Position numbers and translations under genes: made by a program. A DNA stretch of 64,000 nt from Eledone cirrhosa (Eukaryota). The notes beneath the pieces are model-generated. The model did not search any database. It saw only the letters and a list, made by a program, of their open reading frames with translations, and was not told the origin of the DNA. Below are positions 1,093 through 11,710 of this stretch, one piece after another (positions within the stretch are counted from its first letter, which is position 1; every line of letters begins with the position of its first letter). The stretch spans positions 281,976,001 through 282,040,000 of the forward strand of contig OZ024741.1 of assembly GCA_964016885.1 (NCBI GenBank), read 5' to 3'.

Positions 1093-1116
<24 letters not shown>

Positions 1117-1124
<8 letters not shown>

Positions 1125-2398
1125 TACAATAACAGAGATAGTTTAAAGCTAATCTCTGACTGGTAACCATCTCACTCAACAAACATTAGGTTATATTTTA
1201 ATATAAACCCAATTTAAGTGTTTGGGGTGCTAACAATATGTATTATGTGGAAAAGCCAGTTGTATTATTTTATGAGATATAAATAAAGTTAAAATATATC
1301 TCTCTTTCCAAACAATTGTTTCATTATAAGTTTTCTACAAATTCGGAGAATATTTCCAGTTTATGTAGAAGCCTAATATACATTCATGTAAGAATATATT
1401 TAGGTGGGCGCTTATAAATCATCAGTGGATGCCCATTAAACCTTGATATAAGAAAAACATTTCTTACCACGGTTAAAAATCATGTCCGTTAAGTTGCTCC
1501 TTCCCGCATTGAATGACCGGCAAATTTGAAATTCCAGCAGTTTTTGACTGAGGAAGTGTTATAGCATCACTAAGCAGGAAGGGGAGACAACTACGATCCA
1601 CGAAAGGAGGAAAAAAAATAATATACACGCGGGTTAATCAGTTTATTCAAAAACATTATCAATCCAACGTGTTAAGAACTCAATTGAAAATAAAAAAATA
1701 AATATATGCGTGTATAAATTACACACGCATATAGATATTTTCTTAGGCTAAAATCAGAGGTTGTACCTGAATAAGAAACCGCATCTCGTAACCGTAGTAA
1801 ATACGGAAAGTTATGCTTAGAAGGGCAAATGGGAATGTAAATCTCTGGCCGAATTAAGAGTAAAATATAAAACACACGCGGGTTAATTAGTTATTTCAAA
1901 ACTAATATCAATTCCTCGTGTAAAGAACTTAATTAATTTAAAAAAATAATTGTATGCATGTAATTATATACATAGGCATAAATATATTTTCTTAGGCTAA
2001 AAAACAGAGAAGTTACAACCAATAAAAACCACAATATCGCACAACAGTAATAAATACGGAAAGTCAAATTTATAAGGTACCTGGAAATAAACACCTCTGG
2101 CCAATCAAGAGTAAAATATTAATACAATAACAGAGATAGTTTAAAGCTAATCTCTGACTGGTAACCATCTCACTCAACAAACATTAGGTTATATTTTAAT
2201 ATAAACCCAATTTAAGTGTTTGGGGTGCTAACAATATGTATTATGTGGAAAAGCCAGTTGTATTATTTTATGAGATATAAATAAAGTTAAAATATATCTC
2301 TCTTTCCAAACAATTGTTTCATTATAAGTTTTCTACAAATTCGGAGAATATTTCCAGTTTATGTAGAAGCCTAATATACATTCATGTAAGAATATATT
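1117..2398 (-). mobile_element. Non-autonomous Penelope-like element in (TA)n with ~284-bp direct terminal repeats (pLTR-like), ~998-bp unit
   Basis: 1117-1400 matches 2115-2398 with no mismatch seen; internal ~245-bp tandem pair 1625-2118; hammerhead 1307-1429; no coding ORF. Confidence 0.7.
1307..1429 (-). ncRNA. Type I hammerhead ribozyme motif with large branched insertion in loop II
   Basis: Minus strand TCCA-CTGATGA-t-TTATAAG-[~80 nt, two hairpins]-CTTATAA-t-GAAAC-AATT-GTT-TGGA. Confidence 0.65.
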
Positions 2399-3429: not shown

Positions 3430-4933
3430 TGTGGGTATGGTGCCATCGAGATACGCACCGACTCGGCTACTGTACTCGGATGATCAGTGCTCACCAGTGA
3501 GAAGAGAGTGCGAACGAGAGGGGCGGCGGAGATGCTGATAAAGCGCCGCCTGGGAACTTTAGGAGAGCTGGCCACCGAGTTCGACCTGAGGCTAAGCGTA
3601 GTTTTCGTGCCCTCAGAGAAAAATAGGGCGGACGTCTTAACCAGGGTAAAGAAGGCCTGGATGGAAGCGCCGGAGGAGGTAGAAGATGAGATAGCTGCCG
3701 TGTGTCGGCTGACCGAGTCGGATCTGAAAGGGTTTCATGACATGCACCACATGGGAGTGGATAGGACCCTGTTCCTAGCCAGGAGAATCGACTCGGACGT
3801 TAACAAGCACAGTGTTCAAAGGGTGGTTAGAGGCTGCGTCCGATGTCAGTCCATTGATCCCGCTCCGGGTGTGCACAAAACGGGAAGCCTCCCGGTGGAT
3901 CGCGACTGGAAGCGATTGGTGGTGGATTTAATGCACTACCGACAGGGAACGTACCTCTTGATGGTCGACTGTGGACCAGGACGGATGGCGCTATGGAGGG
4001 AGATGAAGACTGGAACGGCCGAGGAAATCATGCGGACGTTGAGAGAGGTGTTCTTGGAGCGGGGCCCTGTGGACGAACTGCTGATGGACAACAGCGCAGC
4101 GTTCCGCTCGGAGGCGCTGAGGGTGATGCTCGATGGATGGAAGGTGGACCGTTTCTTCAGAGCAGCGCACAGGCCGAGCGGAAATGGAATTGTGGAGCGA
4201 CACCACCGGACAATCAAGGCAATGGCGGAGCGGGGCCATATCTCACCAATGGAGGCAGTGTTCTGGTACAACATGTCCCCTCGGGTGGGACAGGTCGAGG
4301 AATCGGTGCCACACAGAGCAGTATTCAGATACGAGTGGCGGCACCCGTGCACGCCACCACAACGGCCAGTGGGGAGAGAGAATGCATTCGTGCAGGTGGG
4401 CGAAGAAGTCTGGGTTAAGCCCCCAGATGCACGTTGCACATCTCAATTGTGAAGGGGAACGGCGACGGCCGTAAATTCCCAGAACAATGTGTCCGTGGAC
4501 GGAGTACCACATCATGTCCTGGATGTCTGTAGAATCACTGTGTCAATGGACTCCGAGGAAGAGGAAACTCAAAGTGCCGCCCCAACACTGCGGAGTTCGC
4601 AAAGAAGTCGCAAACCACCAACCTGGACTTTCATATGCAGAAGGACGAGGGCGGAATTGATCCTTGAGATCAGGGGGCGTGTGGGTATGGTGTGGTGTGC
4701 GGTGGCCGGAAGCTGGGGAGTGCTCGACTGGAAGAGTGCTTGGCCGGAAGGGTGCTCGACCGGAAGGGCCAGCAGATTGGTCTCTCTCTAGTGGTGACCA
4801 GGAACGGTGTGGGCACGAGCTTGGCAGCTCCCGGGTGTTAATGAGTTGGACGCACGTGGAAGAGGAGAAACCAGCCTTGGGATTTAGCGGCGCCTATGAA
4901 AAGTGGTAAGTGAGATAGCTTTTTCTAACCACA
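3430..4933 (+). mobile_element. Internally deleted Ty3/Gypsy LTR retrotransposon (3' LTR 4680-4933; 5' LTR reduced to 13 bp)
   Basis: TG...CA ends; 5-bp TSD TAGGA at 3425-3429 and 4934-4938; purine-rich PPT before 4680; TGTGGGTATGGTG at both 3430 and 4680. Confidence 0.9.
3487..4452 (+). pseudogene. Gypsy pol remnant: RNase H C-terminus plus integrase
   Basis: NRADVLTR, HHCC zinc finger (FHDMHHMG..CVRC), DDE core (VVDL, LLMDNS, GNGIVER). Confidence 0.9.
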
Positions 4934-5166
4934 TAGGAAACACGGTAAAAAGGCTCCTAGTCCACACTGTAAATGTGGTTAGTGTTAGGAAGGGCATCCA
5001 GCCGTAGAAAACCTGCCAGATACAGTCCTATACAAGCGAGACATGGTCACCCAATCAATCTTGCCTCAATTAGGACAATTCCCATCTAACCCATGCTAGC
5101 GTGGAAGATAGACGTTAAATGATGATGATATGTTATATATATTATATATTATATATATATCATATG

Positions 5167-5204
<38 letters not shown>

Positions 5205-5330
5205 AGTAGTAACACAACAGTTAGTTCACCATACCGAGAACAATTGTTTTACCTGGTGAACTAATTGTTGTGTTACTACTTCTACCAAACTCATCCCATG
5301 GACTACGGATATTACCTTCCAGTGTTCTAC

Positions 5331-5363
<33 letters not shown>

Positions 5364-5719
5364 CATATTGTATATGTATATATATATATAAAGAGCGAGA
5401 GGGGGTGAGAGTGAGGGAGAAAGAGAAAGGTTGGGTTGACAGATAGAGCGACAAAGTGAATTATATATCAACAATTTTCTTCCGTGATAACATCTTCCAA
5501 ATAGTGACAAGCTAATTTAGCTGGAACTGAGGCAGTATGTAGCTTGCTATTTCTTGATATTCTTCATTTTCTCTGAACTTTTGTTCTGTGTTTTGCATTT
5601 ACCATTGTATTACTGCTGTAGCTGCCACAAAGGTTTGTTTTCATTACTTAAGGCATTAAATCAATAGCTAAATACTAAGGGACCAAGGAGTGTAAAACAG
5701 TTTCACTGGGAGGAAATGT

Positions 5720-10758: not shown

Positions 10759-10982
10759 ATATTTATTAAAATAACAGATTAAAGTTTAAGCAAAGAATCG
10801 CTGCTTTCACCCTTAACGGGATCTTCTGAAAGTATCGTCTTCCTGTCTTCCTCCGGTTGCAACGTTTTTTGAAATATCCAGTTCTGCGTTTACAGATTGA
10901 CTTTGTTAGTTTCAGAAGATCCCGTTAAGGGTGAAAGCAGCGATTCTTTGCTTAAACTTTAATCTGTTATTTTAATAAATAT
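10759..10982. repeat. 73-bp inverted repeat in (TA)n with degenerate hammerhead-like core
   Basis: 10759-10831 is the reverse complement of 10910-10982; CAGAAGA-t-CCC-gttaa-GGG-t-GAAAGC at 10913-10938. Confidence 0.7.
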
Positions 10983-11339
10983 ATATATATATATAGATAT
11001 ATGTACTAATGTCTGTTTGTATTTATACAGCTGTTAATATATATATGTGTGTCGTGTACATGCATATATTCGTAATGGAAAATTGATCATATAGAATAGC
11101 TGTGTTTAAAATAACAGAGGCTAGGAAATTGCCATTTTCATCCCACCCATATTATCACCCTATATTTATCACCTTCCGGTATGCATGCCTGGTGCTGTAC
11201 GCTAAACACTTGTGCACATAGCACGTTAAATCAAGTTCCGCTCAGTGCAGACAAGGGGCAGACGGAGGCTCCGTAAGCGGTAGCGTAGGCAACTCGGCTA
11301 GGAGAGCTACCACTCCGAATAAATTGGTGCGGGTTAGAG

Positions 11340-11710
11340 AAGTCCCCTAAGTCCAGTAAGACAACTTCCCTAGTGCTGGTGGCACAAATAAAAGCACTGT
11401 CCATTCTGTAAAATGGAGGGGAGGATAGGGCCCCTGAGTCCAGTAAGACGACCTCTCTAGTGCTGGTGGCACGAATAAAAGCACCCAGTCCATGCTGTAA
11501 AATGGAGGGATAGTTAGGGCCCCTGAGTCCAGTAAGACAACCTCTCTAGTGCTGGTGGCACGAATAAAAGCACGTAGTCCATGCTGTAAAATGGAGGAGT
11601 AGAGAGGGATCCTGAGTTCAGTAAGACAACCTCTCTAGTGCTGGTGGCACAAATAAAAGCACCCAGTCCATGCTGTAAAGTGGTGCTGGTATTAGGAAGG
11701 GCATCAACCA
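11340..11710 (+). repeat. ~90-bp tandem repeat x4 made of the RTE/SINE-associated motif
   Basis: Repeating ccctgagtccagtaagacaacctctctagtgctggtggcac. Confidence 0.85.

Follow-up and report, generated by a model that had tools for sequence, protein, structure and literature searches.

A type I hammerhead motif with a branched, two-hairpin helix II arm in a non-coding tandem repeat of Eledone cirrhosa

The minus strand of positions 1307-1429 in a 64-kb window of the Eledone cirrhosa genome (the whole stretch of DNA that was analysed) holds a type I hammerhead core whose helix II is extended into a 96-nt branched arm. The ribozyme is of a known type and lies in a known kind of host, and the branched two-hairpin arm is a new variation. 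The host repeat is most likely a retrozyme-like, non-autonomous derivative of a Penelope-like element (PLE), in which the hammerhead and its conserved two-hairpin domain probably serve to cut multimers into units of ~1 kb for a Penelope-like enzyme, itself probably of the Hydra clade, that inserts at (TA)n. The role of hammerheads in PLEs is an open question in the literature (PMC8557442, PMC7761336), and hammerhead censuses use descriptors or models with a short loop 2, so that the long-arm class is invisible to them.

Every element named in the first-pass annotation of this DNA (helix I, CUGAUGA, helix II, two hairpins, GAAA, and a palindromic helix III) can be read from the letters at the place given there; the arm is also recovered by folding, and the motif by a descriptor. 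Helix I pairs UCCA (1429-1426) with UGGA (1310-1307). The core box CUGAUGA (C3-A9, 1419-1425), in which N7 is the only position that varies between subfamilies, is separated from the GAAA box (1322-1319) by exactly 96 nt, in agreement with the earlier estimate of about 96 nt bridged by a 7-bp helix. This helix II, formed by UUAUAAG (1417-1411) and CUUAUAA (1330-1324), encloses the branched domain (1324-1417 overall), and its 82-nt loop 2 contains hairpin 1 (1372-1404) and hairpin 2 (1333-1370, with a 7-bp base). The spacer alone folds as the 7-bp helix II and two hairpins at -23.4 kcal/mol, an energy that none of 200 mononucleotide shuffles matched. The segment 1311-1322 comprises the GAAA box, helix III, which is the palindrome ACAAUUGU (1319-1312, self-duplex -6.4 kcal/mol), and U17 (1311) of a GUU triplet, from which site-specific self-cleavage is predicted at 1311/1310. 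The motif has the CUGANGA and GAAA boxes with N7 alone free, the A15.1-U16.1 pair, and an NUH triplet that is GUU here and GUC in a sister family. Two quirks went beyond what had been annotated, namely the GUU triplet itself and a U.U mismatch at 10.1/11.1 (1418/1323), at the base of helix II. The G10.1-C11.1 pair of hammerheads is highly conserved, though not absolutely; it is absent from both families, which have U.U (the window motif) and A-U (the sister family) in its place. Natural hammerheads are reported to tolerate U10.1.U11.1 (PMC3088659).

Folding of the whole motif gave a mixed answer to the structure first proposed, which stood for the arm and did not emerge for the rest: in an unconstrained nested fold helices I and II do not form, and the hammerhead fold costs 5.8 kcal/mol. 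By a program that is unable to score pseudoknots, the hammerhead fold lies 5.4-6.5 kcal/mol above the minimum in all three sequences folded, and in the fold of the family alignment the 5′ core box is paired with helix III instead. The z-score for the fold of the whole region (just -1.77) and the 99-100% identity of the 40 copies scored, the best of 2,384 candidates, are what would be expected if short motifs had come together by chance in AT-rich DNA and been amplified with a young repeat. That explanation is extremely improbable: the abundance of the pattern speaks against it, and it is already refuted by the lack of descriptor matches in controls, by compensatory changes relative to the sister family, and by constraint in 84 genomic copies.

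The pattern CTGATGA-N70-130-GAAACAATTGT has 4,016 matches in the genome and 2 in the control, and comparable disparities were found for a shorter-arm pattern (1,017 vs 1), for the pattern with other letters at N7 (3,543 vs 13), and for the pattern of a group with 46-56-nt arms and a different helix III (4,223 vs 0). A strict descriptor applied to 190 loci (618,174 bases), which had been fetched for such motifs, gave 200 matches, 163 of them with arms of at least 40 nt, and it gave none in four controls, consisting of the reversed sequences and three block shuffles. Within the 64-kb window, 1307-1429 is the sole match to this descriptor. The suggestion that a branched variant would escape standard descriptors was borne out by an Rfam search, in which no hammerhead family appeared among 26 matches at E<=10. 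When the 7-nt core box was left free, the 100 matches listed comprised, by eye, 68 with CUGAUGA, 26 with CUGACGA (17 of these in one array), and 6 with single other changes. The variation between U and C at N7 may in part reflect CpG decay, and an A7 subfamily exists as well. The array in question is satellite-like, spanning 24 kb (G000:C2:312291421-312315358) in 747-nt units of the window's family, and all 17 units listed have C at N7.

Covariation among genomic copies, proposed earlier as a check, is found between the window's family and the sister family, which was found at locus L121, has 1,706 candidates in ~707-nt units, and is 72% identical to the window family over motif and tail. Comparison of the window with one sister copy (L176) over the 22 pairs of helix I, helix II and the hairpin bases revealed 5 pairs changed on both sides, none changed on one side, and none broken. 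These paired changes occur in helices I and II and in both hairpins, including 2 of the 4 basal pairs of hairpin 1 and one compensatory change in hairpin 2, and under random placement of 10 changes they have a probability of about 1e-5 in what is a single comparison between two clades. All 10 core positions are unchanged between the two, as are 48 of 69 positions elsewhere. In an alignment of both families (9 rows, two clades), 98.8% of cells are paired, a value that none of 500 shuffles reached and that compares with 33-45% in slid controls. Covariation is present in both helices that surround the core; the helix III pairs are invariant across the two families and hence do not covary. The window family taken alone covaries weakly, with 95% of cells paired, 2 of 41 pairs changing on both sides, and 117 of 500 shuffles scoring as high (25 sequences: the window motif plus 24 rows chosen from 36 distinct ones of the family, with near-identical young copies left out), and it is a single split between the two families that carries the strong signal. 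The sister family differs further in its A-U pair at 10.1/11.1 and in the greater length of its helix III.

Conservation was gauged in 100 copies that had been picked by the 27 nt after the cut alone, of which 84 cover the motif, with substitutions counted against the window. The core without N7 has 8 substitutions in 1084 positions (0.74%), as against 44 of 82 (54%) at N7, and helix II has 17 in 1172 (1.45%). The hairpin bases are similarly constrained, with 7/664 (1.05%) in hairpin 1 and 7/1173 (0.6%) in hairpin 2, and the upstream flank reaches 746/6573 (11.4%). This pattern, in combination with the paired changes, indicates an arm that is selected for pairing at its hairpin and helix bases.

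The constraint is not uniform along the arm, and it is conceivable that the hammerhead cuts and the arm is a tolerated passenger, with any insert that closes helix II being accepted and pairing being kept solely against misfolding. Consistent with this, substitution is about as frequent in the inner pairs as in the unpaired insert (146/2163, or 6.75%, vs 210/2839, or 7.4%), one copy (L112) lacks 18 nt of hairpin 1, and across the families of the genome arm length ranges from 12 to 104 nt, in shapes that are unrelated. The long arm is not unique, as long arms occur in many families, most of them as single rods; among 32 groups, a stable two-hairpin arm is confined to the window's family and its sister. 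A passenger arm is nonetheless distinctly unlikely, since hairpin bases, spacing, and junction have been kept, with paired changes, between families differing by 28%, and since the rod arm of a coding family (family B) covaries strongly along its length (14 of 27 pairs, with none of 500 shuffles reaching its score). For family B the pairs were counted in a hand-named structure, because RNAalifold recovered 6 pairs owing to register shifts. The absence of a shape common to the arms of different families weakens the case for a single conserved protein site. In family B (L060, L040 and L034, among others), the arms are 78-83 nt long, lie behind Hydra-type ORFs, and share a bulged-A motif in which GUAU faces AGAC. 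In some families (L136, L084, L139), two core boxes stand in series before one GAAA box, ~45 or 12 nt apart, so that two alternative helix II lengths are possible. Flanking sequence also yielded, by chance, 19 descriptor matches to other hammerhead-like motifs, whose arms measure 26-104 nt and whose helix III palindromes differ (L063:3582, L138:2251, L184:2879, L166:283, and others).

The element that carries the motif is not an ORF-bearing one bounded by two pLTRs; it proves to consist of 1.29 copies of a tandem unit of 998 nt, which is non-coding, inserted between (TA)n tracts (1114-2398, minus strand). What had been taken for a truncated 5′ pLTR is the 5′-truncated upstream unit of a partial tandem (2112-2398), a 287-nt copy of 1114-1400 at an offset of 998 nt that begins inside hairpin 1 and retains the 3′ part of the arm, the GAAA box, a second predicted cut site (2309/2308), and the tail. 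The locus therefore has one whole and one partial hammerhead motif, and the arrangement is the usual one for PLEs (PMC8557442). An internal duplication of ~250 nt (1613-2122, 76% identical) distinguishes this 998-nt form from older subfamilies with a ~745-nt unit, from which the duplication yielded it. The 3′ tail (1114-1310) would contain the priming site of reverse transcription: in 24 of 24 family copies the 3′ end lies in (TA)n, 191-197 nt past the predicted cut, after 6 of 30 loci had been left out as overlapping or multi-unit. The 5′ ends are scattered, and several copies are longer than one unit. The repeat shows the insertion pattern of PLEs, in which the 3′ end is fixed, 5′ truncation varies, tandems are partial and targets are (TA)n, and it has the non-coding tandem units, each with a type I hammerhead, that mark non-LTR retrozymes. 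The repeat is also covered in four contig sets of unknown kind that are uninformative on ends or strand.

No ORF longer than 72 aa is present on the sense strand of the 998-nt unit, and a tblastn comparison of the unit with four Hydra-type proteins gave no match. The hallmarks of an autonomous Hydra-clade PLE, that is, an ORF with a reverse transcriptase (RT), a C-terminal GIY-YIG and a CxCX5C linker, are thus lacking in the window unit and present in other long-arm families. Of 50 locus strands that bear an ORF, 22 (at 21 places) have a hammerhead with a 72-98-nt arm and the same GAAACAAUUGU 390-982 nt downstream of the ORF, and ORFs ahead of long-arm hammerheads, none of them in the window's family, encode a C-terminal GIY-YIG and the CxCX5C, CxxC and CxH motifs by which the Hydra clade is defined (PMC8557442). 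As Pfam returned no family for four ORF fragments of related loci, assignment to Hydra rests on these motifs and on comparison by eye with Hydra-1_Obim rows. Among the loci examined, no coding element carries the hammerhead of the window family, and what the window family shares with coding Hydra-type elements is the GAAACAAUUGU box, the core traits, and the target. A Naiad origin was weighed on account of the 'half cores' described for Naiad (PMC8557442) and was set aside, the ORFs found next to long-arm hammerheads being of the Hydra type with a C-terminal endonuclease (EN); Naiad partners were outside the search.

The closest known relatives of the motif are the hammerheads of Hydra-clade C-terminal EN+ PLEs (Craig et al. 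2021, PMC8557442), which are likewise of type I with a short helix I and a palindromic helix III, and are located near the 3′ end of elements that target (TA)n. Two features of the window motif recur by eye in the Hydra rows tabulated there: 14 of 26 have the U.U mismatch on which helix II stands, and 10 of 26 have H=U. In contrast, loop 2 has 3-10 nt in all 26 of those rows, as opposed to 82 nt with two hairpins here, and the host unit is non-coding, unlike the Hydra-clade elements of that publication. The longest loops in its table (35 and 29 nt) belong to spike-moss PLE-X elements that are marked as deviating. The minimal PLE hammerheads (Cervera and de la Pena 2014, PMC4209133) are similar in having a helix I of 4-5 bp, a helix II stem of 7-8 bp, a palindromic helix III and a dimer model, and, as described, differ in keeping G10.1-C11.1, in an extra base at 9.1, and in a small loop 2. 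A 2026 survey calls a helix II of 6-8 bp long (PMC13725137). The host is most like the animal non-LTR retrozymes (Cervera and de la Pena 2020, PMC7229834; Li, Clavereau and Pollet, bioRxiv 10.64898/2026.07.22.740005), which are built of tandem units that are non-coding and AT-rich, each bearing a single type I hammerhead, and occur as monomers to long arrays, and one of which, the axolotl HHR_Amex2 hammerhead, has U.U at the base of helix II (PMC7229834). The units here, at ~700-1000 nt, lie at or above the range given for retrozymes (typically ~150-400 nt, 972 at most), and the branched arm sets them apart from retrozymes, which are expressed as linear and circular monomers. The literature search returned no natural hammerhead with a branched loop II of ~80 nt; examples with a long stem may sit in works or supplements beyond it.

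The following sequence of events would account for these features. A multimeric transcript would be cut at GUU 1311/1310, either by a dimer of tandem copies or with protein help, a lone copy being presumably weak because its palindromic helix III would amount to 2-3 bp. The cut units would be ligated to circles, or uncut multimers would act as template. A trans-acting RT/EN would then prime ~190 nt 3′ of the cut, at (TA)n, and run back across the cut, with variable 5′ truncation. The arm would be kept for its shape; as the least certain components of the model, its base may hold helix I through a short pseudoknot, and its hairpins may offer a binding surface for the borrowed protein. The anole Poseidon element provides a precedent, in that its priming was shown to occur internally, past the hammerhead on the 3′ side, and its cleavage to be assisted by protein (PMC11167929). 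Counting against the model, published PLE hammerheads react slowly in vitro (PMC4209133) and need protein (PMC11167929), and of frog dimers 1 of 9 was cleaved (bioRxiv 10.64898/2026.07.22.740005).

Genomic 5′ ends are only suggestive as an indication of cleavage. Four of 100 copies have their 5′ end 0-2 nt from the cut, compared with 19 over the next ~195 nt (Poisson P 2e-4). The (TA)n junctions listed in the interval from -34 to +16 number 26, of which, by eye, 24 lie at -2 to +16 and the other 2 at -3 to -34. Among these 26, 13 lie on an ATATAT stretch that resembles the target, and a similar pile of ends would be expected from stalling at the foot of the fold. A control window at ~+70 to +120 gave 107 reverse-strand matches vs 120 at the cut, with an anchor common to 20 of 26 pattern-picked copies vs 3 of 26 for that of the cut window. 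The cut site is crossed by 96 of 100 copies, which implies that the usual template is religated or uncut. The same count, the suboptimal GUU and U.U, and the disfavouring of the active form in nested folding would also suit a real fold that works uncut, as a structural signal for protein binding or template positioning in a read-through transcript, with tandems arising from multimeric templates that require neither cleavage nor circles. In the anole Poseidon element, moreover, hammerhead mutations had no effect on insertion in vitro, and no reads ended at the cut (PMC11167929). This explanation is credible and yet unlikely: the catalytic positions are all kept as N7 drifts, as would be expected of a catalytic motif; the sister family retains a GUC site and a stronger helix III; and there is an excess of 5′ ends at the cut and immediately beyond it. 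A cleaving hammerhead with a selected arm hence remains the preferred reading, and the sister families, with the same arm and predicted differences in catalytic strength (GUU and palindromic helix III vs GUC and longer helix III), provide, along with short-arm and rod-arm relatives, a series for arm tests that could separate cleavage tuning from enzyme recruitment.

A conserved pairing outside the canonical fold (1406-1434) may link helix I to the arm. GGGC (1434-1431), just 5′ of helix I, is complementary to GCCC (1409-1406), just after helix II, and the two could form a pseudoknot or a competing local pairing. Both strands are kept in both families and never change on both sides, and 11 of 84 copies have a G to A change in the pairing. 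Nested folding of the window family favours GGGC/GCCC over helix II (P 0.98). A helix I-II pseudoknot in the window family is plausible by analogy with other hammerheads, and the pairing could just as well represent an off-state. In one hammerhead set, a pseudoknot between stems I and II is predicted for ~40% (Perreault et al. 2011, PMC3088659), similarly as a base-paired contact between the helix I flank and the distal side of helix II; unlike the cases in that paper, the predicted pairing here would join a multiloop linker after a 7-8-bp helix II to the flank of a 4-bp helix I. In the unrelated 46-56-nt-arm group, pairing occurs at the same two places with letters that differ per subgroup, in a manner consistent with a helix I-II pseudoknot. 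In 19 rows of this group (L206 and L168 having been dropped), the longest helix averages 5.7 bp within a sequence's own strands, as compared with 3.6 bp for strands taken from different subgroups and 3.4 bp when the other loop strand is the partner. Registers were shifted in the alignment of this group (A4), and its column count was omitted. The group (L191-L220, L028, L034, L138) consists of ~483-nt tandem units. A general flank-to-arm pseudoknot across families was unsupported, with duplex p<=0.05 in 8 of 32 groups, at least one of which (L046) is a 5′ inversion.

It is also imaginable, as a rather doubtful elaboration, that the hammerhead is gated, the arm binding a trans-acting Penelope-like protein and the GGGC/GCCC off-state becoming an active pseudoknot upon binding or tandem dimerisation. 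If so, the RNA of a parasite would be cut and circularised only after capture of the enzyme, across thousands of loci, and the gated hammerhead would be a natural counterpart of the loop-II aptazymes that have been engineered.

Several other features of the window were noted. Adjoining the 3′ end of the element is a MITE-like inverted repeat (744-1094) with 101-nt arms that are 96% complementary, and a related partial copy is found upstream of it (366-541). On the plus strand, 3484-4452 is a 322-aa open frame, with a stop after 4452, that resembles a retroelement integrase in HHCC-like and DDE-like motifs recognised by eye. A fold-back insertion between TA/GA repeats (5150-5380) consists of head-to-head 3′ pieces that match the tail of a short-arm (12-nt) hammerhead family at L083-L086. 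Further along, an inverted repeat with 76-nt arms (99%) occupies 10759-10982, and four tandem 89-nt units occupy 11331-11684.
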